The position numbers and the translations under genes are program-made. From contig DIXU01000017.1 in the NCBI GenBank assembly GCA_002436105.1, positions 26,015 to 90,014 of the forward strand: a stretch of DNA of 64,000 bases. The letters are read 5' to 3'. How positions within the stretch are numbered: position 1 is the first letter of the stretch; every line of letters begins with the position of its first letter. The notes beneath the pieces were generated by a model. That model was not told where the DNA came from, ran no database searches, and worked only from the letters and a program-made list of their open reading frames with translations. Below, piece by piece: positions 1 through 31,457 of the stretch. This DNA comes from Candidatus Aminicenantes bacterium UBA6072. Lineage in GTDB: Bacteria; Acidobacteriota; Aminicenantia; UBA2199.

Positions 1-1
1 G

Positions 2-1072
2 GTGGTGTTCCGGCAGCTGCGCTTCATCCAGGACAAAAACCTGGGCTTCGAGAGAGACCAGGTGCTGGTGCTGCAGAACGCCCATCTGCTGGACAAGCAG
101 GCCGAAGCGTTCAAGAACGAGATGCTGAAGCATCCGGGTGTGGTCAGCGCCACGATATCGGGATTTCTCCCCGTGCCTCCTTCCAACCGCGACAACAGCG
201 CTCTGTTCCCCAAAGGCGCCATAGAAAGCAGCCGCACGGTCATGGCCCAGAATTGGCGCATCGATCCCGACTACATCAAAACCATGGGCATGAATATCGC
301 GGCCGGCCGGGATTTCGCCAAGGAGCGCCCCGCCGACCGGGAGGCCGTGATCATCAACCAGGCCGCGGCCCGCCAGTTCGGCTGGCGGGAGCCGCGGGGC
401 CGGCAGATCAGCTTTCCCCAAGACAGCCAATTAAAGTCATTCCGCGACCGGACCGTGATCGGCGTGGTCGAGGATTTCCACTTCGATTCCCTGCGCAGCC
501 CCATCGGCCCGCTGGTGATGTTCCTGGGCGAGAGCAACGACCGGATATCGTTTCGCTTCCAGGCCCGCCAGACCACCGCGGTGCTCGCCGGCTTGAAGCG
601 GCTATGGCAGCGTTTCGCTCCCGGTCAACCCTTTGAATATGCTTTCATGGACGAGCGTTTTGCCGAGCTCTATGGCGCGGAACTACGCCTGGGCACGATC
701 CTCGGCGTGTTCTCAGCCCTGGCCATCCTGGTCGCCTGCCTGGGCCTGCTGGCCCTGGCCTCGTTCATGGCCGAGCGCCGCACCAAGGAGATCGGCATCC
801 GCAAGGTCCTGGGAGCGAGCGTTGCAGAAATCACTCTCCTGCTCTCGCGCGAATTCGTCAAATGGGTAGTCATCGCCGCCCTGATCGCCTGGCCCTTGGC
901 TTTTTATGCAATGAATCGCTGGCTCCGGGGATTTGCCTACCGCACCGACGTCAGTATCGGCTTGTTCATGCTTTCCAGCCTATTGGTCCTGCTGATCGCC
1001 CTGTTGACAGTAAGTTTCCAGGCCGTCCGCGCCGCCCGCGCCAACCCGGTCGACAGCCTGAGGTACGAGTGA
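2..1072 (+). CDS. ABC transporter permease, FtsX/MacB family (C-terminal part; 5' end lies outside the window)
   Basis: ORF runs off the window start. Ends with the ANPVDSLRYE tail and FtsX-type TM helices shared with the downstream paralogs. Confidence 0.8.
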   Translation: MVFRQLRFIQDKNLGFERDQVLVLQNAHLLDKQAEAFKNEMLKHPGVVSATISGFLPVPPSNRDNSALFPKGAIESSRTVMAQNWRIDPDYIKTMGMNIAAGRDFAKERPADREAVIINQAAARQFGWREPRGRQISFPQDSQLKSFRDRTVIGVVEDFHFDSLRSPIGPLVMFLGESNDRISFRFQARQTTAVLAGLKRLWQRFAPGQPFEYAFMDERFAELYGAELRLGTILGVFSALAILVACLGLLALASFMAERRTKEIGIRKVLGASVAEITLLLSREFVKWVVIAALIAWPLAFYAMNRWLRGFAYRTDVSIGLFMLSSLLVLLIALLTVSFQAVRAARANPVDSLRYE

Positions 1073-1085
1073 CCCGAGGTGAAAT

Positions 1086-3497
1086 ATGTTCAGAAACTAT
1101 TTACTGACCGCCTGGCGCAACATCGTCCGCCACAAGGGGTACTCCCTGATCACCATCGCCGGGTTCGCGCTGGGACTGGCCTGCTGCCTGACGATCATGC
1201 TGTACATCCTGGACGAGATGTCCTACGATCGTTTCTATCCCAACGCCGACCGCACGGTCCGCATCGACGTCGACGCATCCTGGGCCGACAACACGGCGAG
1301 CATGGCCACCACCAGCGCGCCCCTGGCCGCCCTGATCCGGCGCGAGATCCCCGAGGTCGAGGCCGTCACCCGCTTCCGATACTATGGGGCTCCGGTGCTG
1401 CGCCACGGTGAAAAGTGCTTCAGCGAAGAGCGCTTTTTTTTCGCCGACCCCACCTTCTTCGACGTGTTCTCCGTTTCCTTCATCCAGGGCGACCCCCGGC
1501 ATGCCCTCGCGCAGCCCAATGCCGTCGCCATCAGCCTTTCCATGGCCCGCAAGTATTTCGGCTCCGCTGAAGCGCTGGGCAAGGTGCTGACCGCCGACAA
1601 CCGCCGGGACTACATCGTCAGCGGGGTTTTCGCCGACCTGCCGCCGCAGACCCACTTTCATTACGACTTCATCGCTCCCTTCGGCAACCGCAGGGACACT
1701 CAGGTGGACAGCTATGCCACCAACAACAATTTCAGCACCTATCTCAGGCTGCGGCCCGACATCACCATCACCCGGTTCGCGGCCAAACTCGACCGCCTGG
1801 TACAAACCTTCGCCCACCCCGAGCTCGAAAAGCTGTTCGGCAACAGCTGGGCGAAGCTGACGCAAGGGGGGGCGTATTTCCGCTGGCTGCCCCGGCCCCT
1901 GACCGATATCCACCTGCGCTCCCACCGCGATTTCGAGATCGAGACCAACTCGGACATCCGTTATGTTTATGTCTTCAGCCTGATCGCTTTCGCCATCTTC
2001 GTGCTCGCCTGCGTCAACTTCATCAACCTGACGACCGCCCGCGCCACCACCCGGGCCCGCGAGGTGGGCATCCGCAAGAGCATCGGCTCTAGCCGCGGCG
2101 AGCTGGTGCGGCAATTTTTCAGCGAGATCCTGCTGCTGGTGTTCCTGGCCGTCCTGATCGCCGTGGTCCTGGCCCAGCTGCTTTCGCCGTATCTTGGCCT
2201 GTCCGCGGAAAAAGGCGCGCCGACGGCCGTTCTCGCCAACCGCTCCCTGCTGCCGCTGCTGGGCGGGCTGCTGCTCCTGAGCAGCCTGCTGGCCGGCGCG
2301 TATCCCGCTTTCCTGCTGTCGTCATTCAAGCCGGCGGCCGTGCTGAAAGGCGACCCGCTCATGAGCAAGAAGTCGACCCTGCGCGGCCTGCTGGTCGTCC
2401 TGCAGTTTTCCGTTTCGATCATCATGATCATCGGCACGCTGGTGGTCAGCCGGCAGCTGCATTTCATGCAGGACCGCGATCTCGGCTTCGGCAAGGAGCA
2501 GGTGCTGGTCATTCGCAAGGCGAACGACCTGGGCAAGGGGGTTCGCGCCTTCAAGCAGGAATTGCTGGCCCGCCCGGACGTCGTGTCCGTCAGCTCCGCG
2601 AGCCATTTGATGGGCGATCCCGAGTTCGGCGATGAGCTTTACAAGAATCCCGACGCTCCCGCCGCCCAGCTGATGAAACTGCAGCGGCTGTTCTGCGACG
2701 AGAATTTCGCCAGGGTCTTTCAGCTGCGCCTGGCCGGCGGCCGCTTCTTCGACAAGTCCCGGCCGGCCGACCGCAAGGGCATCGTCATCAACGAGGCGGC
2801 GGCCCGGGCCCTGGGAATGAGCGATCCCGCGGGAAAGCAACTGATCTCGATGGGCGGGGAGAGGATCCCCGTCCTGGGCGTGGTCAAGGACTTCCATTTT
2901 CAATCCCTGCGCCAGAGAATCCTGCCCATGGCCATCAATTACTGGGGCGAAGACGCCTTCGGCCCGCTGCTGGCGGTGCGCATCGCGACACCCGACATGC
3001 GGCAAGCGCTGGCGGGCATCCGGCGCATCTGGGAACGCCACAGCCGCGGCCAGTCCTTTGATTTCCAGTTTTTCGACGATCGCTTCGCCAGGGTCTATGC
3101 GGCCGAATCGCGGCTTTCCGGGCAGCTGCTCGCTTTCTCGATCCTGGCCATCGTCATTGCCTGCCTGGGGCTCCTCGGGCTTTCAATCTTCATCGTCCGC
3201 CAGCGTACCAAGGAGATCGGCATCCGCAAGGTGCTGGGCGCCTCCATGACGAGGATCAGCTGGCTGCTGTCGGGGGAATTCCTCAAGCATGTCCTCCTGG
3301 CCAGCGTCATCGCCTGCCCCATCGCCTATTTCCTCATGAAGCGCTGGCTGGGCGACTTTGCCTTCCGCATCGGGCTCGATGCCGGGCCCTTTGCCTTGGC
3401 TGTCCTGATCACCGTGGGCGTGAGCCTCGCGACCATCGGCGTGCAGGTCGTGCGCGCGGCGCGCGCCAACCCCGTCGACAGTCTGAGATATGAATGA
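1086..3497 (+). CDS. MacB-like ABC transporter permease with duplicated FtsX domains (~800 aa)
   Basis: 803-aa ORF. N-terminal motif M-x-NYLK/LTAWRNI-x-HKGYS, two FtsX-like 4-TM blocks each preceded by a large extracytoplasmic domain, C-terminal ANPVDSLRYE. A 13-nt gap separates it from the upstream paralog. Confidence 0.85.
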   Translation: MFRNYLLTAWRNIVRHKGYSLITIAGFALGLACCLTIMLYILDEMSYDRFYPNADRTVRIDVDASWADNTASMATTSAPLAALIRREIPEVEAVTRFRYYGAPVLRHGEKCFSEERFFFADPTFFDVFSVSFIQGDPRHALAQPNAVAISLSMARKYFGSAEALGKVLTADNRRDYIVSGVFADLPPQTHFHYDFIAPFGNRRDTQVDSYATNNNFSTYLRLRPDITITRFAAKLDRLVQTFAHPELEKLFGNSWAKLTQGGAYFRWLPRPLTDIHLRSHRDFEIETNSDIRYVYVFSLIAFAIFVLACVNFINLTTARATTRAREVGIRKSIGSSRGELVRQFFSEILLLVFLAVLIAVVLAQLLSPYLGLSAEKGAPTAVLANRSLLPLLGGLLLLSSLLAGAYPAFLLSSFKPAAVLKGDPLMSKKSTLRGLLVVLQFSVSIIMIIGTLVVSRQLHFMQDRDLGFGKEQVLVIRKANDLGKGVRAFKQELLARPDVVSVSSASHLMGDPEFGDELYKNPDAPAAQLMKLQRLFCDENFARVFQLRLAGGRFFDKSRPADRKGIVINEAAARALGMSDPAGKQLISMGGERIPVLGVVKDFHFQSLRQRILPMAINYWGEDAFGPLLAVRIATPDMRQALAGIRRIWERHSRGQSFDFQFFDDRFARVYAAESRLSGQLLAFSILAIVIACLGLLGLSIFIVRQRTKEIGIRKVLGASMTRISWLLSGEFLKHVLLASVIACPIAYFLMKRWLGDFAFRIGLDAGPFALAVLITVGVSLATIGVQVVRAARANPVDSLRYE

Positions 3498-3569
3498 AGT
3501 TGCAGAGCGCAAAGCGCTTCTTTGCTATGCGCTATGCTCTCTGCGCTATGCAATTGCTAGAGGCAACCC

Positions 3570-6005
3570 ATGTTTAATAACTATCTGAAAGTCGCCTGGC
3601 GGAATATCATCCTCCACAAAGGCTATTCATTCCTGAATGTCTTCGGCCTGGCCGTGGGCATGGCCTGCGCCCTGTTCGTCCTATTCTGGGTCCAGGACGA
3701 ACTGAGTTTCGACCGCTTCCACGCCAACGCCGGCACCCTTTACCGGGTCGAACAGGATCAAGCGACCGGCCAGGGAAAGTTCCACGTCAACCTCACGCCG
3801 TATCCCCTGGGGCCGGCCTTGAAGGCGGAGATCCCTGAAATAAAGGAAGCGACGCGGGCCGCCTTTCCGGGGGATTTGCTGGTTCGCTACGGGGAGAACG
3901 CTTTTTTCGAGAGCCGGGTGCTCGCCGTCGACCCCCAGGTTTTCCGGATGTTCACCTTTCCGCTGCTCAAGGGCGACCCGGCGACCGTCCTCAACCGGCC
4001 CGCTTCCCTGGTGATCAGCGAAAACATGGCCAGGAAATATTTCGGCTCCGCCGAACCCATGGGCAAGAACGTGACCATCAACAACGCCCATGCCTTCACG
4101 GTCACCGGCGTCATGAAGAACCTTCCCCTGAACTCCTCATTGTCGTTCGACATGCTGGTCCCCTTCGATTTCGTCAAGACCCTGGGTCAATACAACGATT
4201 CCTTGGGGAGAAATTTCATCTGGACCTTTGTCCAGCTTCATCCTCAAGGCCATGCCGCCACGACCGGAGCAAAGATCTCCCGGCTGGTCACGAACCGGAT
4301 CGTCGCCGAAATCGGAAGCGACCCCGAACTGCAAAAGCGGATGCAGGGCGATCCGGCCCTGCGAAAACGTTTTGAGAATTACCGCGGTCCGGACTTTTCG
4401 CTCATGCCCCTGGTCGACCTGAAGCTGTTCGCTCATTTCGGCTTCAGCCGCAATAACATGGGCATCCAGTACGTGGTGGCCTTCAGCATCATCGCCCTCT
4501 TCGTCCTGCTCATCGCCTGCATCAACTTCATGAACCTGGCCACGGCCCGCTCGGTCAACCGGGCCAGGGAGGTCGGTCTGCGCAAGGTCGTCGGCGCCCG
4601 GCGCAGAAGCATCATCGGCCAGTTTTACAGCGAATCGATCCTGACCGCCCTCCTGGCCGCGGCGGCCTCGTTCGTTCTCGTGCTTCTTTTTTTGCCGGTT
4701 TTCAATGGCCTTTCCGGAAAAACGATGACGCTCGCATCCCTGTGGCAGGGGAAATCCCTGCTGGGAATCCTGGCCGTCACCCTTTTTACCGGGATCGTCG
4801 CCGGCAGCTACCCGGCCCTTTTCCTTTCCTCATTCCAGCCCGCCAAGGTCCTGAAAGCCGGCAGGAGCGGCGGCGCCAAGGGCGCCTTGCTGCGCAAGAG
4901 CCTGGTCGTTCTCCAGTTCGGCATATCCATCCTCCTGCTCATCGGCATGGGGGTTGTCGCGCGCCAGGTCGACTATATGAGAAACAAGAAGCTCGGCTAC
5001 GACAAGGATCAACTGATCTACCTGCCGCTGCGCGGCGAGACATTTTCCTCCTACGCCGCCCTCAAGGAGCAGCTGCTCCGCAATCCCCGGGTCATGAACG
5101 TAACGGCGACCCACCAGGAGCCGACATCCATCGGCAGCAACGGCGGCGGGGCCGACTGGGACGGCAAGGACCCCGGCCAGAAATTCCTGATCGGCAATGC
5201 GTCGGTCGATTTCGATTATCCCGAGACCCTGAAGATCGAGATGGCGGCCGGCAGAACGTTTTCCAGGAAATTCGCCATGGACAGCGGCAAGTCCTGGATG
5301 GTCAATGAAGAGGTGACGAAGCTGATGGGGCTTGACCCCGCCGCGGCGGTCGGGAAAAGATTCACTTGGGGAGTGGAGGGAACGATCGTCGGGGTCATGA
5401 AAAATTTTCATTACCAGTCGGTCCGCAGCGCCATCGAGCCGCTGGCCGTGATCGTCGCTCCGGAAAATTTCCGTTTTGCCATCGTCCGCCTCAAGGCGGG
5501 AGAGGTTCCGGCCTCCCTGCAGGACGTCAGGAAAACCTGGCAACGCGTGTTCCCGCAGTACCCTTTCGAATACCGTTTCTTCGATGAAGATTTCGGCCGG
5601 ATGTACCAGGCCGACGAAAGCATGGGCTCGCTGCTGAAGGCATTCGCCGGCCTGGCCGTGATCATCGCCTGCCTGGGGTTGTTCGGCCTGGCTTCCTACA
5701 CGGCGGAGCAGCGGACCAAGGAGATCGGCGTGCGCAAGTTTTTGGGGGCGTCTTCCCCGGGCATCGTCCTGCTTTTTTCGAAACAGTTCGCCAAATGGGT
5801 CCTGCTGGCCAACCTGCTGGCCTGGCCTTGCGCCTATATCCTGACAAAAAACTGGCTCCAGGGATTCGCCTACCGGTCGACCGTCGCCTGGTGGCTGTTC
5901 GCCCTGACCGGTGCCGGGACCCTGATCATTGCCCTGCTGACCGTGAGTTTCCAGGCCGTCCGCGCCGCCCGCGCCAACCCGGTGGACAGTTTGAGGTACG
6001 AATAA
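3570..6005 (+). CDS. MacB-like double-FtsX ABC permease (paralog)
   Basis: 811-aa ORF with the same N-terminal (MFNNYLKVAWRNIILHKGYS) and C-terminal (ANPVDSLRYE) signatures. Confidence 0.85.
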   Translation: MFNNYLKVAWRNIILHKGYSFLNVFGLAVGMACALFVLFWVQDELSFDRFHANAGTLYRVEQDQATGQGKFHVNLTPYPLGPALKAEIPEIKEATRAAFPGDLLVRYGENAFFESRVLAVDPQVFRMFTFPLLKGDPATVLNRPASLVISENMARKYFGSAEPMGKNVTINNAHAFTVTGVMKNLPLNSSLSFDMLVPFDFVKTLGQYNDSLGRNFIWTFVQLHPQGHAATTGAKISRLVTNRIVAEIGSDPELQKRMQGDPALRKRFENYRGPDFSLMPLVDLKLFAHFGFSRNNMGIQYVVAFSIIALFVLLIACINFMNLATARSVNRAREVGLRKVVGARRRSIIGQFYSESILTALLAAAASFVLVLLFLPVFNGLSGKTMTLASLWQGKSLLGILAVTLFTGIVAGSYPALFLSSFQPAKVLKAGRSGGAKGALLRKSLVVLQFGISILLLIGMGVVARQVDYMRNKKLGYDKDQLIYLPLRGETFSSYAALKEQLLRNPRVMNVTATHQEPTSIGSNGGGADWDGKDPGQKFLIGNASVDFDYPETLKIEMAAGRTFSRKFAMDSGKSWMVNEEVTKLMGLDPAAAVGKRFTWGVEGTIVGVMKNFHYQSVRSAIEPLAVIVAPENFRFAIVRLKAGEVPASLQDVRKTWQRVFPQYPFEYRFFDEDFGRMYQADESMGSLLKAFAGLAVIIACLGLFGLASYTAEQRTKEIGVRKFLGASSPGIVLLFSKQFAKWVLLANLLAWPCAYILTKNWLQGFAYRSTVAWWLFALTGAGTLIIALLTVSFQAVRAARANPVDSLRYE

Positions 6006-6020
6006 GTCAAGGAGGATCCC

Positions 6021-8423
6021 ATGAGCAGAAATTATTTGAAATTGGCCCTGCGCGTTATCCGCCGCCAGAAGGGGTATTCGCTCATCAACACGATCGGCCT
6101 GGCCATCGGCATGGCCTGCTGCCTGCTGATCATGCTCTGGGTGCAAAACGAGCTTTCATATGATCGCTTCCATGATAAAGGAGACCGCATCTTCCGGGTG
6201 TTCCAGGAGCTCACCCTGAATGACCGGGTACGAACCGCCCCTGAAACTGGCGCCATGATGGGCCCGGCCGCAATCCAGTCGATTCCCGAGGCCGAAGCGG
6301 CCGCTCGCATCCTTCCCATGGCGGACACCACCGTCAAGTACGGCGAGAAGGAATTTCGCGAGAATCATATCCTGTTCACCGACTCGGAGATATTTTCCGT
6401 TTTCAGTTTTCCCCTGGTCTCCGGACATTCTGCTACGGCGTTGACGGCGCCCTATACGGTTGTGCTTTCCGAAAAGACGGCCCGCAAGTACTTCGGCGCC
6501 GAAAACCCGCTCGGTAAAGTGCTTCAATTTGGGGGCGGCCACGCGTATTCCGTCACCGGCGTCATGAAGGATGTGCCCCGCAATTCTCATTTGACGTTTG
6601 ACATTCTCTGCTCGTTCGCCAGCTATGCGAAAGAGAACGAATACAATGCGTCCTATTGGGGGAACATGGAGACGTATACCTATTTCTTGCTGGCTCCGGG
6701 GGCTGACAGCCGTTCTTTTCTGGCCAAGCTGAACCGCCTGAGCGACGAGAATATCGGCAATAAATTGAAGAAGATCAACGGAGGCCTGAAGGTATTCCTG
6801 CAGCCACTGCGCGACATTCACCTGCATTCGGGTTTTGAATCCGACATGGCCGAGATCAACGACATAAAGACCGTGATCCTGTTCTCCGGAATCGCCCTGT
6901 TCATCCTGCTTATCGCCTGCATCAATTTCATCAATCTCGCGACCGCCCGCTTCGCCAACCGCGCTTTGGAAGTGGGACTGCGCAAGACCATGGGCGCCAG
7001 CCGCAGCTCCCTGGTCCTGCACTTTTTCGTCGAGACGTTCGTTGTCGCCATGCTGGCCGCCGTACTGGCCATCCTGCTGACAGCCCTGGCCCTGCCCGTG
7101 CTGAATTCCATTGCCGGCCAGGAGTTCCCTTACTCCGCCCTCTCGCAGCCCCTCTTTCTCCTGAGCGTCTTCCTCTTCACGGCCATGGTCGGCGTTCTCG
7201 CCGGCAGTTATCCGGCCTTCTTCCTTTCCTCTTTCGCCCCGGTGCAGACCATGAAGGGCAAGCTCAAGGCCGGCGCGGCCAGCGCCACCTTCCGCAGGAT
7301 CCTGGTGGTCGGGCAGTTCACGGTCTCCATCGCCCTGATCATCGGCACCCTCACCGTTTTCAAGCAGCTCCGTTTCATCCAGAACAAAAATCTGGGATTC
7401 ACCAAGGAGCAGGTGATGGTGCTGCCGCTGCCCGATAGAATGGCGGTAACGCGGGAGACGGTGCGGGAGGAATTCGCCGCCGTAAATGGGATCACAAACG
7501 CGGCGATATCATCGGACGTACCGGGCGTTGACATCAACATGAACAATTACATTCCTCAAGGAAAAACCGAAAGCGAAGGGGTGCTGATGCAGACGATGGC
7601 TGTGGATGACCATTTCCTGACCACCTTGGGGATGACAATCGTGAAAGGCCGGAATTTTTCTGGGGACATGAAAACAGATGCCAACGAAGCCCTTCTGATC
7701 AACGAGACCGCCGCGGACCGCTTGGGCTGGCAGGACCCCATCGGGAAAATCGTGACCCGCCCCGCCTTCTCGAATGGAAAACACGTTTCTATTAAAAGGA
7801 AGATCGTGGGGGTGGTGAAGGACTTCCACACCCTTTCCCTGCATCAGAAGATCGAGCCCCTGGTCATGGACAACTCTTCTTGGGGATTGCGCTTTTTATC
7901 ACTGCGTTTTGAAGGCCAACGCCTTCCTGAACTCATCACTGCTGTGAAGGCAAAGTGGCGGCAATTCTTTCCCGCGATAGGTTTCGATCCTTTCTTTCTG
8001 GATGAGGCTTTCGCCCGGAGATACCAAGCCGAGGAACGGCTCAACAAGATCTTCAGCTCTTTTGCCATCCTGGCCATCTTCATTTCCTGCCTGGGATTGT
8101 TCGGCCTGGCCGCTTACATGACGGAGAGGCGGACCAAGGAGGTGGGCATCCGCAAGGTGCTCGGGGCGCCGGTTTCCGGCATCGTGCTTCTGTTGTCGCG
8201 TGAATTCAGCATATGGGTGCTGGCCGCCAACCTCGTCTCCTGGCCACTGGCCTATCATTTCCTCACCCGCTGGCTGGAAGGCTTCGCCTACCATGCCCGC
8301 ATCGGCATCGGCATCTTCCTGGTATCTGGCTTTTCCGTCCTGCTCATCGCCCTGCTGACCGTGAGTTTCCAGGCCATTCGCGCCGCCCGCGCCAACCCGG
8401 TCGACAGCCTGAGGTACGAATGA
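6021..8423 (+). CDS. MacB-like double-FtsX ABC permease (paralog)
   Basis: 800-aa ORF with the same architecture. GGAGG RBS upstream (caaggaggatcccATG). Confidence 0.85.
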   Translation: MSRNYLKLALRVIRRQKGYSLINTIGLAIGMACCLLIMLWVQNELSYDRFHDKGDRIFRVFQELTLNDRVRTAPETGAMMGPAAIQSIPEAEAAARILPMADTTVKYGEKEFRENHILFTDSEIFSVFSFPLVSGHSATALTAPYTVVLSEKTARKYFGAENPLGKVLQFGGGHAYSVTGVMKDVPRNSHLTFDILCSFASYAKENEYNASYWGNMETYTYFLLAPGADSRSFLAKLNRLSDENIGNKLKKINGGLKVFLQPLRDIHLHSGFESDMAEINDIKTVILFSGIALFILLIACINFINLATARFANRALEVGLRKTMGASRSSLVLHFFVETFVVAMLAAVLAILLTALALPVLNSIAGQEFPYSALSQPLFLLSVFLFTAMVGVLAGSYPAFFLSSFAPVQTMKGKLKAGAASATFRRILVVGQFTVSIALIIGTLTVFKQLRFIQNKNLGFTKEQVMVLPLPDRMAVTRETVREEFAAVNGITNAAISSDVPGVDINMNNYIPQGKTESEGVLMQTMAVDDHFLTTLGMTIVKGRNFSGDMKTDANEALLINETAADRLGWQDPIGKIVTRPAFSNGKHVSIKRKIVGVVKDFHTLSLHQKIEPLVMDNSSWGLRFLSLRFEGQRLPELITAVKAKWRQFFPAIGFDPFFLDEAFARRYQAEERLNKIFSSFAILAIFISCLGLFGLAAYMTERRTKEVGIRKVLGAPVSGIVLLLSREFSIWVLAANLVSWPLAYHFLTRWLEGFAYHARIGIGIFLVSGFSVLLIALLTVSFQAIRAARANPVDSLRYE

Positions 8424-8496
8424 TGGAGACCGGAGGCCGGAGACCGCAGACCGGAAGATGAAGGAAATCCAAAAAAGCTTGAGTCGTTAGGAGGCA

Positions 8497-8766
8497 ATGA
8501 TGAAAGAGATCACGTTGCAAATCCCCGTGCTGGAGGCCGAACAGAACGTCGAGATCGACGTGCGCATCAACGGCCGGCGCCAGGTGATGAAATACCGCGT
8601 CGAGATCGTGGAGTTCGAGCCCGACGCCGCGGAAAAGAAGGACACCGTCTCCATGCTCAAGCAGGTGATCCGCGAGCACGATCCCGACTGGCAGCTGGTG
8701 CAGATCGGCGCCCCGCTCGACCACAAGATCCCGGTCACCTTCCGCCGGAAGCAGTCTTCCCAGTGA
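8497..8766 (+). CDS. small acidic hypothetical protein (89 aa) inside the ABC cluster
   Basis: Strong RBS (taggaggcaATGATG). No signal peptide or TM helix. Normal amino-acid composition, unlike the GC-artefact ORFs elsewhere. No family recognised. Confidence 0.5.
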   Translation: MMKEITLQIPVLEAEQNVEIDVRINGRRQVMKYRVEIVEFEPDAAEKKDTVSMLKQVIREHDPDWQLVQIGAPLDHKIPVTFRRKQSSQ

Positions 8767-8959
8767 GCAACGAAGCCAATGTCCGGAAGCGGACACCCAT
8801 TGTCCCGATTGCGGACAAGCCGGGGCAACGGGAAACGGCCGCCCCGGAAGCGGGCCGCAAACCTTGCGCCCTGAAGGGTTTTCATCGCCGATTCCCGCTC
8901 CGAATTGGCATGCTTATTGCATGACAATGATTGGGAACGATCCCCAAGGAAGGTGGCGG

Positions 8960-9177
8960 ATGAGCCTTAAGGAAATACTCATGAAGCTGGTCGAACAAAA
9001 GAGCCCGCTATTGCTTTGCGACAGCCAGAGCGAATGGGAGGCCGAGTCGCTGCTGGGTTCATTGCCCGCGCCCAGGCTGTCGGCCTCCGCCTACCTGCAG
9101 CCGGGCCTGTATATCGCCGAGATCAACGAGGGCGGCTACCTGGGGCGGGTGCTGTACAAGCTCAAGGAGAAGCCGGC

Positions 9178-9181
<4 letters not shown>
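8960..9181 (+). CDS. small hypothetical protein (73 aa), translationally coupled to the ABC ATPase
   Basis: In-frame ATG at 8960 preceded by GGAAGGTGG. Its stop (9179-9181) overlaps the ATG of the ATPase gene as ATGA. The ORF track gives a longer 8864 start. Confidence 0.45.
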
Positions 9182-9912
<731 letters not shown>

Positions 9913-10086
9913 AACAGCTCCTTTTCTTCCTGCTGCTGCTCATTGTCCTGCTGAGCACGTCCGCCTGAGGAGGCCTGAAGCATAATGAACCGCAAAACAG
10001 AGAATCGGTCTGCCGGCCGGACCGGGCCGCGGTCCCAAGGCTCACGACCCGAATCGCTCGGCCGCCGGGGCTACTGGAAGCTGCTC

Positions 10087-12540
10087 ATGCTGAAGAACAC
10101 CCTGGGTATCACGCTGCGCAGCCTGATAAAGAACAAGGGGATCTTTCTGATCAAGGTATTCGGCCTGGCGGCGGGCATCGCCTGCAGCATGGTGGTCATC
10201 CTCTACGTGGTGAACGAGCTGACCTACGACACCTACCATCCCGACCACGAGCGGATCTTCCGCATCGCCTGCCGCCGCGTCCACGACGGGGGCGAATTCA
10301 CCAATGCCTCGACCCAGGGGCCCCTGGCCGCCGCCATCAAGGAGCAGATCGGCCAGACTGAAACCGTGGCCCGCATGATCCCCCCGCTCGAGAACGCCAA
10401 GCATGTCCTGGTGGCCCGGGGCGAGAGACGCTTCTTCGAGAAGCGCGCCTGGTTCGCCGATCCCGACATTTTCAGCATCCTGAGCATTCCCTTCGTGGCG
10501 GGAAACGCCGGGAACGCCCTGGCGCGCCCGAGAACGGTCGTCATCAGCGAGAGCACGGCCCGGAAATACTTCGCCGGCCTGCCGCCGCTGGGCCGCCGCC
10601 TGACCATCGAGCTGGACTACGACACCGGAGCGGCCGTCACCGAGGATTTCGAAGTGACCGGCGTGGTCCGCGACGCCCCGGCCAACACCCACCTGAAGTA
10701 CGACATGCTGCTCTCCATGGCCACGCTGCTGACGTATGTCCCCACCCTGAACCAGGATTGGGGGGAATATCACCCCAAGTATACCTACGTGAAGCTCCGG
10801 CGCCACGTCAAGCCATCGGCCTTCACAAAACTGCTGCGCCCCTATGCGGAACGGATACGCCAGGCGTTCGCCAGGCGGGCGGGATCCCCGATGCACAAGC
10901 TCGATTTTTTCCTGCAGCCCCTGGCGTCGCTGCATATGGGCTCCAACCTGCCCGACGAGATCGAGCCGGCCGGCAATATCCTTTATGTGTACATCTATTC
11001 CTTCGCCGCCCTGCTGATCCTGCTCATCGGCGCCACCAATTTCGTCAACCTCTCCGCCACCCTCTCCACGACGCGCAGCCGCGAGGTCGGCATCCGCAAG
11101 ACGCTGGGCGGCAGCCGCGGCGACCTGGTCTGGCAATTCCTCGGCGAATCCCTGGTCATCACTCTGATCGCATTCCTGGCCGCGTTCGCCTTCCTGTCGC
11201 TGCTGCTGCGCTTTTTCAACCGCATGGCCGGCACCGCCATCGATTTTCAGGCGCTCGGCCAACCCCTGGTCCTGGCGATGCTGCTGGTTCTTTTCCTGCT
11301 GCTGGGGATCAGCGCCGGCCTGTACCCGGCCATGGTCCTTTCCCGCTTCCAGCCCGTCAGCGTCCTGAAGAACCAGGTCTTTCCCGGGATGCACGGTCAC
11401 GCCGCGCAACGCCTGCTGATCCTGGGGCAGTTCGCCATCGCCATCTTCCTGGTGGTGTGCACGCTGGTGGTGTTCCGCCAGCTGACGTTCATCAAGGGCA
11501 AGGCCCTGGGATTCGACCGCGAGCAGAAGCTGATCCTGGAGATCAAGAGCAACCAGAGCTATTTCCGCCGCAATTATGAAGCCATCAAGAGTGATTTCCT
11601 GAAAGCTCCCGGAATCGGCGCGGCCAGCGTATCCTCGACGGTGCCGGGGGAGGCCTTCGCCGGCGGCTATTCCCTGCAGAAGGGAAGCTCGTTCGGCATC
11701 CTGAACTCGAAGAGGCTGAAGGTCATCACCGTGGACCACGATTTCATCCCCACCTATGGCATCCGCATGACGGCCGGACGGGCGTTTCAGAAAGCGTCGG
11801 GAAACGACGAACAAGGCGCCTACATCGTCAACGAGGCCGGCGCCCGTGAACTTGGCCTGACGCCGGAAAGAGTCCTGGGCACGCAGTGGACCTCGCATTA
11901 TCACCGCAAGACCAAGACGATCGTCGGCGTGACCGCCGATTTTCACTTCCTGGGCATGAAGGACGAGGCTGAACCCCTGGTCCTGGACATCGAAAAATCA
12001 CTGCTGCGGGTCATGACCCTGTCGCTGGACGCGCGGCGCGTTTCCCAAAGCCTGGCCGCCGTAAAGGAAACATGGCGCCGTCATTTTCCCGGCGTCCCGT
12101 TCGAATATTCCTTCCTGGACGAAGCCTTCGGCCGGGTCTACCAGTACGAGGAGCGCATGGGCAACCTGCTGGGGCTGGTCTCCGGCCTGGGCATCGCCAT
12201 CGCCTTCCTCGGGTTGTACGGCATGATCGCGTTCACCATGCGCATGCGGAGGAAAGAGATCGGCATCCGCAGGGTCCTCGGCGCGACATCGACATCCGTC
12301 GCCCTGCTGCTGACCCGGCAATTCGTCTCGCTGGTGTTCCTGGCGGGCTTCCTGGCGGTCCCCCTGGCCTGGATGGCCACGATCCTGTGGCTGCAGGGCT
12401 TCGCCTACCGCATCCAACCGGGATTTGCCGTATTCGCCTTCGCCTTTCTCGCCACCTTCGCGATCGCCATGGCCGCGGTGCTGCTGCAGGCGCTGCGCTC
12501 CGCCCGCGACAACCCGGTGGACGCGCTGCGCAGCGAATAA
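10087..12540 (+). CDS. MacB-like double-FtsX ABC permease (paralog). An alternative start at 9985 is possible.
   Basis: Same architecture; ends DNPVDALRSE. M35 (MLKNTLGITLRSLIKNKG) matches the paralog N-terminal motif better than the Arg/Gly-rich 9985 extension. Confidence 0.8.
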   Translation: MLKNTLGITLRSLIKNKGIFLIKVFGLAAGIACSMVVILYVVNELTYDTYHPDHERIFRIACRRVHDGGEFTNASTQGPLAAAIKEQIGQTETVARMIPPLENAKHVLVARGERRFFEKRAWFADPDIFSILSIPFVAGNAGNALARPRTVVISESTARKYFAGLPPLGRRLTIELDYDTGAAVTEDFEVTGVVRDAPANTHLKYDMLLSMATLLTYVPTLNQDWGEYHPKYTYVKLRRHVKPSAFTKLLRPYAERIRQAFARRAGSPMHKLDFFLQPLASLHMGSNLPDEIEPAGNILYVYIYSFAALLILLIGATNFVNLSATLSTTRSREVGIRKTLGGSRGDLVWQFLGESLVITLIAFLAAFAFLSLLLRFFNRMAGTAIDFQALGQPLVLAMLLVLFLLLGISAGLYPAMVLSRFQPVSVLKNQVFPGMHGHAAQRLLILGQFAIAIFLVVCTLVVFRQLTFIKGKALGFDREQKLILEIKSNQSYFRRNYEAIKSDFLKAPGIGAASVSSTVPGEAFAGGYSLQKGSSFGILNSKRLKVITVDHDFIPTYGIRMTAGRAFQKASGNDEQGAYIVNEAGARELGLTPERVLGTQWTSHYHRKTKTIVGVTADFHFLGMKDEAEPLVLDIEKSLLRVMTLSLDARRVSQSLAAVKETWRRHFPGVPFEYSFLDEAFGRVYQYEERMGNLLGLVSGLGIAIAFLGLYGMIAFTMRMRRKEIGIRRVLGATSTSVALLLTRQFVSLVFLAGFLAVPLAWMATILWLQGFAYRIQPGFAVFAFAFLATFAIAMAAVLLQALRSARDNPVDALRSE

Positions 12541-12704
12541 TCTCGGGCCGGGACCGGAAAACGGTCGGCCGGCAGGCCCGTTCAGTTGGTGCGGTTGTTG
12601 TAATCGGGGACGTTTCAAGAAACAGGCGGCTGCCGGACAGGTCCAAAACCGGAACGGTCACGCCCTGGGCGGAAATTACTTTCCAGCGTCGCGCCGGGGG
12701 CGGG

Positions 12705-13346
12705 TCAGAAGGAGATGCCGGCGCAGAGGAAGGTCTTGAACAGGTGGTAGCGCGCCTTGGGATCGTCGTTGCGCTCGTGGTTGCTGAAGGGCATGAAGAA
12801 GTGGAGCCCCAGGCTGGCGTCGACGGCGCGCAAATATTTCTTGAATTCCTGCAGCCGCAGGCGGGCGGTCGCGTACAGCCCGTATTGCACGCGGTGCAGG
12901 ATGCTGGCCTTCTCGACTTCCTCCTTGTACACGCCCGAGACGTGGGTATAGCGGTTGCTCAGAAAGAGATAGAAGAAGGGGCCGGCCGAAAAATCAAGGG
13001 CAAAGGCCAGCGACTGCCTGGGCAGCGACAGGGGAATCGTCAGCACCTTGCCGACGCCCATGCCCAGGGTGGTTTTTTTCGTGTCCCAAATCCCGTTCTC
13101 GATCGCCAGCCCCTTCCCCGAGATGATGTTGCCGAAGACGAGGAACTCGTGGCGGTGGGGATGGAACGAGGAGAGGACCAGCAGCGTGTCGCGGAAAGAG
13201 GGCTGCGGCTCCTTGTTCCAGATATCGCCGCTGGTAAAGACCGTGAGGCGCTCGCTGGAAAGGAACGAGAGGGAAAGGCCCAGGTCGGCGAACAGCGAGG
13301 CGGCCAGACCCAGCCCCAGGAACAGAAAGACGGTTTTCTTGCTCAT
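12705..13346 (-). CDS. small outer-membrane beta-barrel-like protein (hypothetical)
   Basis: Signal peptide MSKKTVFLFLGLGLAASLFA. Alternating amphipathic strands. C-terminal aromatic residue (…GISF). The ORF track's longer N-terminus is an extension. Confidence 0.5.
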   Translation of the reverse strand: MSKKTVFLFLGLGLAASLFADLGLSLSFLSSERLTVFTSGDIWNKEPQPSFRDTLLVLSSFHPHRHEFLVFGNIISGKGLAIENGIWDTKKTTLGMGVGKVLTIPLSLPRQSLAFALDFSAGPFFYLFLSNRYTHVSGVYKEEVEKASILHRVQYGLYATARLRLQEFKKYLRAVDASLGLHFFMPFSNHERNDDPKARYHLFKTFLCAGISF

Positions 13347-13362
13347 CGTTCTCTCCTTTGCC

Positions 13363-14478
13363 TCAAAGCTCCCGCACGGCAAGCTTGACGCCGATCCGGG
13401 AGCGGGCCAGGGCCAGGTCACGCTCCAGCGCCTGGTTGGTTTCCCGCGCCCCGGGCAGGTCGCGGGTGGTTTCCTCGGTCTTTCTTTCGCGCTTGAAGAC
13501 CTTGGGCAGCTTGCTCAGCGCCGACAGGCTGAAGCCGATGCCGGCCAGGTTGAACACCCGCCGCGTACCGTAGAGCGAGGACTTGGCGAACAGCGACGTG
13601 TCGGCGCTGTCGATGGTCGAAGTGATCAGGGTGGCGTTGACTACGAAGAAAGCGGCGCCGATCAGCAGGTCCTTGAGCACCGTCTTCTTGAAGAGTCCCT
13701 TGTCGAAACGCGTGCGCTGCGAAATGACTTTCGTCTCCGTCTCTTGTTCGGGCTGCGGCGCGCGCCCCTTGAGCGCCAGCGTCCCGGACAGGGGGTCGAA
13801 CTCGACTTCGGCCGGGACGTCGTATTCGAGCTCGACAACGAAGTACTTCTCGATCGTCCGCTCCGGGGCGCCGCGCGGAGTCAGCAGCAGGCGGAACGGG
13901 TGGCTGGCACTGTGAAAAAAATCGCTGCCTGCCGGCAGCCGCACCGTCTCGATGCCGGCACCCAGCACACCCTTGGCCAGCAGCGCGCCGTCCCGGGCCA
14001 GGAGCTGAAAGTCGCAGGGCATCGAGGCCTGCAGCCGCAGCTTCAGCTCGGCAGGGGGATCGAAATAGGCGACCGAGGTATGCTCCGGCGCCAGCGAAAG
14101 CTCCCACAGGACGGGAAAATCCCTCCTCCACGACAACCGGAAATCGTTGATCTTTCTGCGGTCCGGGCCGGGCAGGAACGCCAGGTTGACCTCGGTGGCG
14201 CGGAATTCGCCGAGATACTTGTTCATCCAGAACAGCTCGGCCTGGGCATTGCCGGTCCGGGAATGGCAGTAGCCGATGATCAGGCTGGCCGCCGCCTTGT
14301 CCTTGTCGCTCAACAGCGGGAATCGCCCCTGCAGGGATTCGATCAGCCGCGGATGGTCGCTCTCGCTGGCGATGAGCCGCCGGGCCTCCGCCTTCCATTC
14401 CGCAGCGGGCGCCGCGGCCCAGGCAGCCTGGAACAGAAGAAGGGCCGAAAGGAACAGGATCGATCGTTTCACGGCCAT
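13363..14478 (-). CDS. secreted hypothetical protein (371 aa)
   Basis: Cleavable signal peptide (MAVKRSILFLSALLLFQAAWAAAPA) and normal composition. Lies directly upstream of and co-oriented with the OMP-like gene. Confidence 0.5.
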   Translation of the reverse strand: MAVKRSILFLSALLLFQAAWAAAPAAEWKAEARRLIASESDHPRLIESLQGRFPLLSDKDKAAASLIIGYCHSRTGNAQAELFWMNKYLGEFRATEVNLAFLPGPDRRKINDFRLSWRRDFPVLWELSLAPEHTSVAYFDPPAELKLRLQASMPCDFQLLARDGALLAKGVLGAGIETVRLPAGSDFFHSASHPFRLLLTPRGAPERTIEKYFVVELEYDVPAEVEFDPLSGTLALKGRAPQPEQETETKVISQRTRFDKGLFKKTVLKDLLIGAAFFVVNATLITSTIDSADTSLFAKSSLYGTRRVFNLAGIGFSLSALSKLPKVFKRERKTEETTRDLPGARETNQALERDLALARSRIGVKLAVREL

Positions 14479-28885: not shown

Positions 28886-29691
28886 GTTCTCCCCATCAGG
28901 ATGATCTTGTTTCGCCGCGCCCGCTCGGCCAGCGAGGCGGGATCGAGCAGAAGCGTCCTGCCTGCTTCCAGCACGAACGCCGCCGCTCGGGCCGCTGCCA
29001 GCACGTCCAGGGTGCGCGGGCCCGCCACCGGCAGGTCGAAGCGCATGTCCTGGCCCGGTCGGCTGACCTTGGCCACGACCAGCCCGGGGCCGGCGATGGC
29101 CGCGGCCCGCTCGATGGCGCGGTCGGTTCCCTCCATGGCCTCCACGGCCACGACGGCCCTGTCCTTGACGCACACCGTCTGGCCGATATCCAGGCTGGCG
29201 AGGCCCCAGGCCTTCTGCCAGGCGAAATCGATGTCGCCGCGCAGGGCCCTGGTCAGCCGCAGGCGCGGGGTGTAGTTCCTGGCCGCCACCAGGTGCTCCT
29301 TGAGAAAGAAGGAAGAGTCGATGATCTCGATGCCTTCGCCGGCCAGGAAGTCGGCCAGCGCGGCCAGCAGCGACGTGGTGGTGCGGTCGCGGACGCCGGC
29401 CAGAAAACGCAGGAACTTGGCGTCGGCCGCCATGGCCGAGAAGACCGACGCGTGAGGGACGCGGCCGATCATCAGCGCCCGCTTCACGCCGCGGCTCCTG
29501 AAAAAGCGGATGAGCCCACCCAGGCGGCCGAGAGGGAACTCGGCCCATTCGTCGGCTTCAGCGGCCAGGTCGGGGGCGGCGGCGCCGCGGACGGAGGCGA
29601 CCACGGTATGCCAGCCCAGGCGCCGCGCCGCCCGGCAGGTCAGCAGCGGCAGGGGCGGCTCGCCGGCGATGATGCCGATCGTCTCAGCCAT
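28882..29691 (-). CDS. lpxI: UDP-2,3-diacylglucosamine hydrolase LpxI-like (DUF1009)
   Basis: 269 aa with an LpxI-like N-terminal domain. Position directly after lpxA. 8-nt overlap with the lpxA stop. Confidence 0.6.
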   Translation of the reverse strand: MAETIGIIAGEPPLPLLTCRAARRLGWHTVVASVRGAAAPDLAAEADEWAEFPLGRLGGLIRFFRSRGVKRALMIGRVPHASVFSAMAADAKFLRFLAGVRDRTTTSLLAALADFLAGEGIEIIDSSFFLKEHLVAARNYTPRLRLTRALRGDIDFAWQKAWGLASLDIGQTVCVKDRAVVAVEAMEGTDRAIERAAAIAGPGLVVAKVSRPGQDMRFDLPVAGPRTLDVLAAARAAAFVLEAGRTLLLDPASLAERARRNKIILMGRT

Positions 29692-30490
29692 CGGAGCGGA
29701 AATTCTTCAGGATGCCTCGCTTGGTTTTGCTGATGAATTCGGTGATCACCCGGGCTTCCTCGCTGTTGGCGTGCTGCTCGCCGATCCGGTGGACGGCCTG
29801 GGTGGTGTTCAGGTCGGAGTGGTAGAGGATGCGGTAGATGTCCTTGACGTTCTCGATGAAATCGCGGCTGAGCCCGTTGCGCATCATGCCGATGGCATTG
29901 GGACCGTACAGGCTGAACGATTCGCGGCTCTGGGCCACCTTGGCGAACGGCAGGACATCCTGGCAGACCACGCTGTAGCCGCCGATGTAGGCGTTGCGGC
30001 CGATGCGCACGAACTGGTGCACGGCGCAGAAGGCGCTGAGCACGACATAGTCGCCGATCTCGACATGGCCGGCCAGGGTGGCGCCGTTGCTGAGGATGAC
30101 GTGGCTGCCGAGCTGGCAGTCGTGGGCGACATGAGCGTAAGCCATGAGATAGTTGTCGTCGCCCAGGCGCGTGTGGCCCCCTCCCTTCGGCGTGCCGCGG
30201 TTGATGGTGGTGAACTCGCGGATGATGTTGCGGTCGCCGATGTGCACGAAGGTCTCCTCGCCCTTGAAGGTGATGTCCTGGGGGTCGGTCCCCAGCGAGG
30301 AAAAGGGGAAGATATGGCATTCGCGCCCGATGACGGTGTTGCGGTCGATGGTGGCATGGTGCTTGACCAGCGTGCGGTCGCCGATGCGCACGCCGGGCCC
30401 GATGACCGAATAGGCGTCGACCTGGACTTCCCGGCCGAGCTCGGCCTTGGCGCTGATGACGGCGGTGGGATGGATCAGCTTCTGGCTCAC
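29684..30490 (-). CDS. lpxA: UDP-N-acetylglucosamine O-acyltransferase LpxA
   Basis: 268 aa. Hexapeptide-repeat left-handed beta-helix. N-terminus [13 protein letters not shown]…. Confidence 0.85.
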   Translation of the reverse strand: MSQKLIHPTAVISAKAELGREVQVDAYSVIGPGVRIGDRTLVKHHATIDRNTVIGRECHIFPFSSLGTDPQDITFKGEETFVHIGDRNIIREFTTINRGTPKGGGHTRLGDDNYLMAYAHVAHDCQLGSHVILSNGATLAGHVEIGDYVVLSAFCAVHQFVRIGRNAYIGGYSVVCQDVLPFAKVAQSRESFSLYGPNAIGMMRNGLSRDFIENVKDIYRILYHSDLNTTQAVHRIGEQHANSEEARVITEFISKTKRGILKNFRSDG

Positions 30491-30921
30491 TGGGTCACCA
30501 TGCAGCTCATGGTCGCTTCGACCGCCAGCTGACCGTCCACCGAGGCCTTGCCCTCGATGACGGCGAACTTGCCCCGGTCGCGGACCACCAGCACCTCGAG
30601 GTCCAGCCGGTCTCCCGGCACGACGGGCCTCTTGAAGCGGGCTTTCTCGATGCCGGCAAAATAGGCATACACCTTCTGGCCGATGAAGCGCTGCATCAAC
30701 AGCACCGCCCCCAGCTGGGCCATGGCCTCGATGATCAGCACACCCGGCATGACCGGGTTGCCGGGAAAATGGCCCTGGAAAAAATCCTCGTTGCCGGTGA
30801 CGTTCTTGTAGCCCTGGATGGTCTTGCTCCCGTCGCAGGCGGTCACGCGGTCGACCAGCAGGAAGGGATAGCGATGGGGCAGGATCCGCTTGATGCCCTC
30901 GATATCCAGGGGCAGGTTCAT
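30487..30921 (-). CDS. fabZ: 3-hydroxyacyl-ACP dehydratase FabZ
   Basis: 144 aa. Hotdog-fold motif [19 protein letters not shown]. Confidence 0.9.
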
Positions 30922-31436
30922 TTCTTGGCGGCGGCGGTGGACTGGGCGTCGTAGGACTTGACCACCTTCTCGGTAAGGTCGATGGCGGGATCGAAGAAGG
31001 TAACGCCGGCCGTGTTCAGGTCGAGGACCAGGGAGAAGCCGTTCTCCTGGGCGACCTTCTCGATGATCGGCATCAGGTCTTTCTGGATCGCCTCGAATTC
31101 CTTCTGCTGGGCGGCCATGCTTTCCTTCTGGGCGTCCTCGGCGAAGCGCTTGATCTCGGTGCGCTTGTTGGCCAGGTCCTGGGTCTTGCGGTCGCGGGCC
31201 TCGGCGTTCAGCGCCGGGGAGAGGACTTCCTTCTCCAGGGCCTCGATCGCCTTCTGCAGCGACTCGTACTTCTTCTGCTTGGCGATGGTCAGCGCCTGCA
31301 GGCGGCCGATGGCTTCCTTGCCCTTGACCGAGTTCTGCAGGACGACCTGGGGATTGATGATGCCGATCTTGAATTCGGCGAAGGCGAACGCGCTCAGGGC
31401 CACCAGGGCCGCGATCAACAACAGGTGTTTTTTCAT
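30918..31436 (-). CDS. skp: periplasmic chaperone Skp (OmpH)
   Basis: 172 aa. Signal peptide. Lys/Glu/Gln-rich coiled-coil body. Sits between bamA and fabZ. Confidence 0.8.
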   Translation of the reverse strand: MKKHLLLIAALVALSAFAFAEFKIGIINPQVVLQNSVKGKEAIGRLQALTIAKQKKYESLQKAIEALEKEVLSPALNAEARDRKTQDLANKRTEIKRFAEDAQKESMAAQQKEFEAIQKDLMPIIEKVAQENGFSLVLDLNTAGVTFFDPAIDLTEKVVKSYDAQSTAAAKK

Positions 31437-31457
31437 GTTCTTCTCCTTATTGAAAAC

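Follow-up and report, generated by a model that had tools for sequence, protein, structure and literature searches.

A cluster of five internally duplicated FtsX-type permeases with two ATPases, one adaptor and putative sigma-54 promoters in Candidatus Aminicenantes

The window analyzed here, a stretch of 64,000 nucleotides from the uncultured sediment organism Candidatus Aminicenantes bacterium UBA6072 (contig DIXU01000017.1, positions 26,015 to 90,014), begins with a block of genes for ABC-type permeases of the FtsX (MacB-like) kind, and this block is the larger part of a permease cluster on the Candidatus Aminicenantes chromosome. An earlier note on this DNA had described five tandem double-FtsX permease genes and one ATPase gene, and both the table of open reading frames (ORFs) and Pfam agree with that description. 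All of these genes lie on the forward strand and encode the permeases P1 (2..1072; C-terminal 356 residues with Pfam FtsX and MacB_PCD domains, partial at the window edge), P2 (1086..3497; 803 residues, a duplicated MacB_PCD-FtsX protein with eight transmembrane (TM) segments), P3 (3570..6005; 811 residues, assigned by Pfam and NCBIfam domains), P4 (6021..8423; 800 residues, assigned by Pfam and NCBIfam domains and hydropathy) and P5 (9985..12540; 851 residues), and an ATPase, here ATPase-2 (9178..9912, inside the ORF 9016-9912), of 244 residues with an ABC_tran domain, which is a nucleotide-binding domain (NBD) of the MacB/LolD type. P1, P2, P3 and P4 are separated by 13, 72 and 15 nt, in line with the earlier note. 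The ORF of P5 proved equally real, and the start that had been assigned to it at 10087, an internal Met, gave way to the ATG at 9985, which is the most likely start from the sequence because it has a GGAGG ribosome-binding site and because the resulting N-terminal extension of 34 residues aligns from residue 1 with a 72% identical orthologue at the related locus L090 (related loci and contigs are given L numbers). Extra N-terminal extensions of 70-95 residues were also observed in about one-third of the best full-length family members listed in the P4 search.

The left edge of the window cuts the cluster. An exact-protein look-up of P2 retrieved a JGI metagenome contig (Draft_10002563, JGI 3300001567; here L001) that is 99.98% identical to the window, whose position 1 corresponds to position 4078 of L001. 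The contig starts 311 nt upstream of a gene that heads the cluster and encodes a HlyD-type adaptor of the membrane fusion protein (MFP) class (L001 312-1568; 418 residues; HlyD_3, E = 3e-11; HlyD_D23, 1e-7), and a second ABC ATPase gene, ATPase-1 (L001 1601-2290; 229 residues), is located between the MFP gene and P1, as is an ORF of 50 codons that resembles the N-terminal extension of P5. When the window was joined with L001, P1 became an uninterrupted ORF of 2427 nt and 808 codons starting at L001 2723, i.e. 1355 nt upstream of the window, and the complete cluster amounts to five permeases, two ATPases and one adaptor in about 16.6 kb. The view that a single ATPase without an adaptor serves all five permeases thus arose because the window edge cuts the cluster: the single ATPase, a claim for which the earlier note had itself named further ATPase genes immediately upstream as the refutation, is true inside the window only, and the lack of an adaptor had to be given up, whereas the lack of an outer-membrane factor (OMF) gene held for the window and L001 alike.

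L001 differs from the window only by three 1-nt homopolymer insertions (L001 4112, 8473 and 14292), which break P1, P3 and P5 there and fragment the gene calls for these permeases in Draft_10002563. Because the window is intact at the three sites and an independent contig, L002, is 100% identical to positions 1039-5975 of the window, the frameshifts were considered homopolymer errors, and pseudogenization of the paralogs, which the earlier note had named as a refutation, was ruled out. An exact 38-nt search of the metagenome collection for longer upstream sequence gave no match, and the P2 look-up gave the same two contigs.

Every full-length permease showed the Pfam order MacB_PCD-FtsX-MacB_PCD-FtsX (with one MacB_PCD stretch in P5 at the threshold used), and hydropathy predicted eight TM segments in P2 to P5, arranged as 2 x (1 TM - periplasmic domain - 3 TM). 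Identity among the five proteins, compared in pairs over their whole length, is 34-47%, with E-values from 1e-71 to 0, a similarity that is far beyond chance when judged from the sequences. In agreement with the earlier note, the periplasmic domains are the most diverged part (31-34% identity, and the site of all indels) and the C-terminal motif is kept (77% identity over the last 21 residues); identity is 42-52% in the TM blocks and 53% and 61% in the coupling-helix regions, and the E-[IV]-G-[IL]-R-K motif of either coupling helix is retained. The third-position GC content (GC3) of the permease genes, 0.75-0.86, resembles that of the adjoining genes, at a local GC content of 62-67%. In a PDB sequence search the closest solved structures to P4 were MacB chains only, and MacB chains made up most of the PDB matches. 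The best orthologues elsewhere are 86% (P3, in L047), 77% (P1), 72% (P5, in L090), 61-63% (P4) and 52-53% (P2) identical, so that each permease is closer to an orthologue elsewhere than to any paralog in the locus, which indicates that the duplications are old and that the copies have been maintained. The sequences support five intact and anciently diverged tandem paralogs, several of which must share ATPases.

The 754-nt interval between P4 and ATPase-2 (8424-9177) was not empty and contained two small genes, a promoter and two palindromes. The promoter, TGGCATGCTTATTGCA (8906..8921, forward strand), is the only match to the sigma-54 (-24/-12) consensus in the 64 kb, has the exact spacing of the -24 GG and -12 GC elements and lies between the small genes s88 and s73. 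The palindromes TGTCCGGAAGCGGACA and TGTCCCGATTGCGGACA (8780..8817, forward strand), located about 90-125 nt upstream of the promoter, are likewise the only two matches to their pattern in the 64 kb and constitute candidate binding sites for an NtrC-type activator. The same arrangement was found in L001 before the MFP gene, with palindromes at 126-163 and a promoter at 271-286. Ten upstream regions were aligned, comprising both promoter classes from four to six genomes with proteins of only 52-86% identity; the columns that did not vary fell within the palindromes, the promoter and the start codon, and the remainder was essentially unconserved. In 34 of 72 metagenomic loci, palindromes and promoter also precede the MFP gene at fixed distances, and L082, an AT-rich relative, has TGTACG-N4-CGTACA upstream of a GG-N10-GC promoter. 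Moreover, about 30 of 35 long loci have, upstream of the MFP gene and divergent from it, a gene with the domain order Response_reg-Sigma54_activat-HTH_8, usually together with a histidine kinase gene; it is either the immediate neighbor of the MFP gene or separated from it by at least one permease gene, and this regulator is found in L082, L167 and L171 as well. L089 has such a regulator and kinase together with a further permease upstream of its MFP gene. A search for sigma-70-like promoters in positions 1-13500 returned none, versus 2.5 expected; no protein with a GAFTGA-type activator motif was detected in the window, and no small ORF matched a PadR-type regulator. As far as sequence can tell, sigma-54/NtrC-type control of two co-regulated units is well supported. 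Unit A would comprise a palindrome pair and sigma-54 promoter followed by MFP, ATPase-1, a permease relic, a hairpin, P1-P2-P3-P4 and s88, and Unit B a second palindrome pair and sigma-54 promoter followed by s73, ATPase-2, a micro-ORF and P5.

The small gene s88 (8500..8766, forward strand) encodes 88 residues, has a GC3 of 0.91 and its own ribosome-binding site, and matches 261 homologous clusters, all of them named "hypothetical" and without a Pfam domain. The other, s73 (8960..9181, forward strand), encodes 73 residues, overlaps the ATPase-2 start codon with its stop codon (ATGA) and matches 163 homologous clusters. Neither product has a signal peptide or TM segment, and neither belongs to a family in Pfam or NCBIfam. 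AlphaFold2 modeled them with mean confidence (pLDDT) values of 80 for s88 and 94.5 for s73, and a Foldseek comparison with the PDB gave no neighbor for either protein (best E = 0.08 with TM-score < 0.45 for s88; best E = 1.5 for s73). Among eight contexts anchored on homologues of the two genes, six lie inside permease clusters (s88 in L082, L084, L167 and L168; s73 in L170 and L171). The remaining two are a Bacteroidota s73 homologue adjoining DmsABC-like genes (L166 10001-10216) and an s88 homologue among housekeeping genes beside an ORF of 69 codons (L169 6001-6273), so the small proteins are not strictly limited to permease clusters. A micro-ORF of 19 codons (9909..9968, forward strand), which is coupled to and overlaps the ATPase-2 stop codon, encodes the hydrophobic peptide MKQLLFFLLLLIVLLSTSA; it is kept in frame with conservative changes, as MKRILFLLLLLIFLLSTSA, in L090 (10857-10916), the only other locus with a P5 orthologue. 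By its sequence the peptide resembles a free-standing signal peptide, and it may not be expressed.

The two ATPases belong to different subtypes. In an alignment, the ATPase-1 type was canonical, with the signature LSGGQQQRVA and the D-loop GNLDS, and the window copy of ATPase-2 has Leu in place of Arg after LSGGQQQ and Asn in place of the D-loop Asp. Its orthologues show the same type of change (Arg to Leu or Val after the signature, D-loop Asp to Asn or His), which is kept in Aminicenantes, KSB1 and Gracilimonas. Both ATPases have intact Walker A and Walker B motifs, catalytic Glu and H-loop. At L090, ATPase-2 is reduced to a stub by internal deletion (MIRLNGG..FKKLNREG.., L090 10789-10860), and the spacer between s88 and s73 is only 60 nt long, without palindromes or a -24 element. 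L090 retains MFP, ATPase-1, two array permeases, s88, s73 and the P5 orthologue and is, by its sequence, a natural one-ATPase, one-promoter variant of the cluster. This loss of an intact ATPase-2 with the rest kept is evidence from nature that a single type of ATPase can be enough.

In a scan with one genome per species, relatives were found in Aminicenantes (some labeled "Chrysiogenales"), Gemmatimonadota, Latescibacterota, KSB1, Calditrichota and Zixibacteria, and among Bacteroidota in Algoriphagus, Spirosoma, Chitinophaga, Gracilimonas and others. The orthologous loci (L004, L047, L015 with L023, L003, L073, L089, L090 and many metagenome contigs) have a common order, in which the divergent two-component system is followed by an optional permease, MFP, ATPase-1, a variable number of permeases, s73/s88, ATPase-2 and an OMF. 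Two to five permeases lie between ATPase-1 and the small genes in these relatives, and the nearest of them, L089 and L090, have the small genes in the order s88-s73, as the window does. In the closest relatives ATPase-1 is 95-96%, MFP 82-87% and ATPase-2 80-84% conserved; MFP identity in more distant loci is 41-58%. In L003, L004, L023, L047, L073 and L096/97, the gene directly after ATPase-2 encodes an OMF with 76-80% identity to the OMF of L170; an OMF gene also follows ATPase-2 in L170 itself, and s88 in L084 and L168. These genes were detected with the OMF of L170 as query, the more divergent one of L084 having missed the OMFs of the relatives. A gene of the 23S_rRNA_IVP family was observed between the two ATPase genes of L082 (3851-4210).

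A census of 79 related loci counted about 265 permease ORFs versus about 21 ATPases, and the rule of one permease to one ATPase, from which the earlier note had started, is thus inapplicable to this family. Among the largest arrays, L051 has nine permeases within 22 kb and no ATPase, L046 eight permeases and one ATPase, and L061 seven permeases without an ATPase. Within +/-10 kb, many related arrays are orphan; the related metagenome-assembled genome DATKZA01 has at least five separate arrays; and P4 matches 22,151 clusters (50% identity) at E <= 1e-30. Tandem arrays with few or no ATPases and as many as 9-10 paralogs are known, and they are typical for the ADOP-like family to which these permeases are closest.

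The earlier note had pointed to tandem repeats in two intergenic regions, and these repeats are present (3529-3551 and 8425-8455), although a regulatory role for them did not hold, the first being unconserved and the second unstructured. The P2-P3 spacer (3498..3569, forward strand) has GCGCTATGC twice, at 3529-3537 and at 3543-3551, the last of its three GCTATGC copies at 3524 and a weak 6-bp hairpin at 3505-3519; the GCTATGC repeat was ruled out as a conserved site, since the spacer is absent in orthologues (the L047 gap is 13 nt). The GGAGACCGGA-type repeat after P4 (8425..8455, forward strand) is the lone left arm of a hairpin element, a full copy of which is found in L001 between ATPase-1 and P1 (2554-2705; 41-nt arms, -78 kcal/mol, z = -6.2). 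The three overlapping matches to GAGACCGGA, all inside this repeat, are the only ones in the window, and the repeat was ruled out as a structured or regulatory element of its own (z = +0.47); it corresponds to the unpaired left arm of the L001 hairpin. Similar hairpins were seen after the last permease in L023 and L073.

Relics of both ends of a permease were located between ATPase-1 and P1 (L001 2318-2550, 1528-1760 nt upstream of the window start). A frame ending in ...RARPVDSLRYE*, about 45 nt past the ORF of 50 codons, shows 89% DNA identity to the 3' end of P4 plus the downstream repeat, and from these sequences the ORF and the frame are taken to be what is left of the start and the end of a deleted permease. 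At the 3' ends of P1, P3 and P4, the final ~92 nt (981-1072, 5915-6005 and 8333-8423) are 85% identical in DNA, versus 63-65% in the preceding 300 nt, which suggests gene conversion or a recombination handle by which cassettes are gained and lost, and which fits recombination between the ends of cassettes. Turnover is also indicated by the contrast between ATPase-1 (95-96%) and MFP (82-84%), which are well conserved, and the permeases, whose best matches range from 37% to 86% and whose number varies among relatives. Unequal recombination at such conserved gene ends would add or remove permease cassettes.

The best curated model for the permeases is ADOP (TIGR03434, "acidobacterial duplicated orphan permease"), whose profile aligns over about positions 5-803 of 803 (217-803 in the case of P5). 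ADOP proteins likewise have two FtsX modules, each after a MacB-like periplasmic domain, in about 800 residues, and occur, in Acidobacteria and Bacteroidota, in large tandem arrays with few ATPases. ADOP genes also form large paralog families within a genome; the copies in this locus number five. Nevertheless, P2 to P5 score 285-309 bits, well below the curated cut-off of 622.3, and the permeases here are not orphans, as ATPase-1, ATPase-2 and MFP are encoded within the cluster. The regulation also differs, because PadR-type regulators, which we take to be the partners of acidobacterial ADOP genes, are missing here and sigma-54 control appears in their place. The first observation of ADOP has been credited to a 2009 acidobacterial genome paper, and in Psychroflexus torquis a 42-kb cluster of ten ADOP paralogs and transporter genes is abundantly translated, its role being unknown (PMC3914696). 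Dyadobacter genomes contain 28-33 ADOP copies (PMC11573002).

The cluster shares with MacAB-TolC the FtsX-type 4-TM module, whose periplasmic domain sits between TM1 and TM2, the MacB/LolD-type NBD and the HlyD-type adaptor, and its relatives share the OMF too. In MacAB-TolC, however, the NBD is fused to the N terminus of a permease that forms a homodimer, whereas here separate NBD genes accompany an internally duplicated permease with 8 TM and two different periplasmic domains, and the permeases come in five alternative versions and the NBDs in two subtypes. DarBCD, which bears the annotation of a tripartite ABC-type exporter, consists of a duplicated FtsX permease of about 780 residues (DarB), a separate ATPase (DarD) and an MFP (DarC) (PMC8442675). 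DarBCD models were the second-best NCBIfam matches for the permeases and the best for ATPase-2, although far below the equivalog cut-offs (103-151 versus 700 bits for the permeases, 238 versus 375 for ATPase-2), and DarBCD has one permease where the cluster has five; it is the nearest functionally studied analogue and not a family match. These sub-threshold DarB/DarD scores, together with the lack of any precursor or radical-SAM gene, ruled out a darobactin-like export cluster for a peptide that is made on the ribosome and modified after translation (RiPP); radical-SAM and RiPP precursor genes were looked for in the cluster, the five genes downstream of P5 and the short L001 stretch upstream of MFP, and none was found.

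The comparison with YbbAP(-TesA) and BceAB concerns the stoichiometry. Both systems combine a pseudo-symmetric duplicated permease with a separate NBD, and BceAB is also linked to a two-component system. Cryo-EM of YbbAP showed two YbbA subunits per pseudo-symmetric YbbP, one on each coupling helix (PMC12646458). BceA and BceB were reported to associate 2:1, and a review of MacB lists fused double permeases as one organizational variant (PMC5985334). YbbP and BceB differ from the permeases of the window in having 10 TM with two linker helices, versus 8 by hydropathy, and the YbbP model NF041854 matches P5 only, and that marginally (16 bits versus a cut-off of 999); neither YbbAP nor BceAB has an adaptor or permease arrays. 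A motor shared by alternative membrane components is found in group II energy-coupling factor transporters (one EcfAA'T module) and with multitask ATPases of the MsiK/MsmK type. However, these systems are importers with unrelated folds, and the sharing takes place across unlinked loci rather than within a tandem array.

On balance, we favor with moderate confidence an envelope efflux or extraction system of the MacAB-like (type VII ABC) kind with interchangeable membrane subunits. An NtrC-family response regulator bound at the palindromes would switch on both transcription units together. Each permease alone would form a pseudo-dimeric membrane domain docking two NBD subunits through its two coupling helices. 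One permease with two NBDs per complex is proposed because of the internal duplication, the two coupling motifs and the precedent of YbbAP and BceAB, and with this arrangement the permease homodimers or heteromers of the earlier note would not be needed. All five permeases would draw, in competition with one another, on a shared stock of ATPase-1 and ATPase-2 and on the one adaptor, and the substrate range of each complex would differ with the divergent periplasmic domains of its permease. The substrates, most plausibly antimicrobial peptides or other amphipathic toxins, would come from the periplasm or the outer leaflet.

Several points weigh against this interpretation. The regulator and rpoN genes of this organism would lie beyond the sequence at hand, as L001 stops 311 nt upstream of MFP. 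The operon boundaries are uncertain, s88 being upstream of the second promoter here and downstream of it in L004 and L047. The 2:1 stoichiometry is extrapolated from relatives with 10 TM. Searches by tblastn, for which two OMF queries served, gave no OMF in the 64-kb window or in L001, and P5 holds here the position that the OMF has in relatives; efflux across the outer membrane is presumed, and an unlinked OMF elsewhere in the genome is possible. Finally, ADOP proteins are defined as "orphan", so some permeases may use ATPases encoded elsewhere, or none.

As efflux is itself presumed, a role as mechanotransmitter or sensor is a live rival, although we consider it unlikely. According to this explanation the permeases would be mechanotransmitters or extractors like FtsEX-EnvC, YbbAP-TesA and BceAB-BceS and not efflux pumps, and their periplasmic domain pairs would control or feed different partners or report flux to the inducing two-component system. 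Type VII ABC systems often do non-transport work (PMC12646458, PMC5985334), there is no OMF in the cluster of this organism, and a two-component system is tightly linked in relatives, as it is in Bce modules. However, the cluster begins with an MFP and, in many relatives, ends with an OMF, which is the signature of a tripartite pump; the clusters contain no conserved candidate for a periplasmic partner enzyme; and the linked regulator is a cytoplasmic sigma-54 activator rather than part of a BceRS-type pair.

About equally doubtful is an obligatory asymmetric heterodimer of ATPase-1 and ATPase-2, one on each coupling helix of the pseudo-heterodimeric permease, with s73 and s88 as cytoplasmic proteins that regulate the non-canonical ATPase-2 and with five permeases served by one motor. 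It would account for two subtypes that are each conserved across phyla, for the adjacency of the two ATPase genes in L118, L119, L129, L141, L147 and L082, and for the overlap of s73 with the ATPase-2 start codon as well as the position of s73 and s88 before ATPase-2 in relatives. Nevertheless, L090 has lost ATPase-2 and its other cluster ORFs look intact, the second promoter apart; Gracilimonas arrays show only the ATPase-2 type within 10 kb; the catalytic motifs (Walker A/B, catalytic Glu and H-loop) are intact in both ATPases; and s73/s88 homologues occasionally lie away from arrays, as in L166 and L169.

That a single ATPase (9178-9912) powers the five permeases as alternative homodimers or heteromers, without an adaptor, is very improbable: the window has one ABC_tran gene and neither a HlyD nor an OEP gene in the cluster, and L090 has one intact ATPase, but L001 carries a second ATPase and an MFP directly upstream, each permease already has two FtsX modules and two coupling helices, and duplicated relatives bind two NBDs per single permease (PMC12646458, PMC5985334). 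The least credible alternative, that most paralogs are redundant or decaying duplicates without a separate function, draws on the rapid gain and loss of cassettes and the relic after ATPase-1, and it is opposed by five full-length ORFs with a GC3 of 0.75-0.86 and conserved coupling helices and C-terminal motif, by orthologues of 52-86% identity versus 34-47% among paralogs, and by the abundant translation of ADOP paralogs in Psychroflexus (PMC3914696).

The efflux or extraction system that we favor could be one case of a so far undescribed "multi-head" machine of the type VII ABC kind that spans several phyla (Aminicenantes, Zixibacteria, KSB1, Calditrichota and some Bacteroidota), a generalization to which we would give only a small chance. 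Such a machine would combine control by an NtrC-type two-component system and sigma-54, one adaptor (plus an OMF in most lineages), an asymmetric motor of two dedicated NBD subtypes that suits the pseudo-heterodimeric 8-TM permeases and that the cytoplasmic s73 and s88 gate or assemble, and a permease repertoire that recombines, thereby diversifying the recognition of substrates, like a variable receptor array against antimicrobial peptides.

The locus in the window is itself a routine instance of the ADOP-like array pattern. The literature on sigma-54, FtsX arrays and Aminicenantes transporters yielded nothing specific, and the sigma-54 switch, the ATPase-2 subtype and the fold-orphan proteins s73 and s88, for which we found no description, are modest new leads. 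ADOP-like duplicated permeases are among the largest transporter families without a tested function, with dozens of copies in single genomes, and clusters of this type offer a compact, testable model for the energizing of "orphan" permeases, in which 1-6 permeases share two defined ATPases, a single adaptor and, in relatives, a single OMF, together with an on-switch and two small partner proteins.

Downstream of P5 the window continues with convergent, unrelated genes, namely two hypothetical genes, an M90 peptidase gene and a gene for a transporter of the major facilitator superfamily. A separate pump of the resistance-nodulation-division type (AcrB-type, 1026 residues) with its own HlyD-type adaptor, without an adjacent OMF gene, is encoded on the reverse strand at 46734-51034, and no OEP-family gene was present among the window ORFs scanned. 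The reverse strand also carries a BamA-Skp(OmpH)-FabZ-LpxA cluster at 29684-33773, which indicates a diderm organism with lipid A synthesis.

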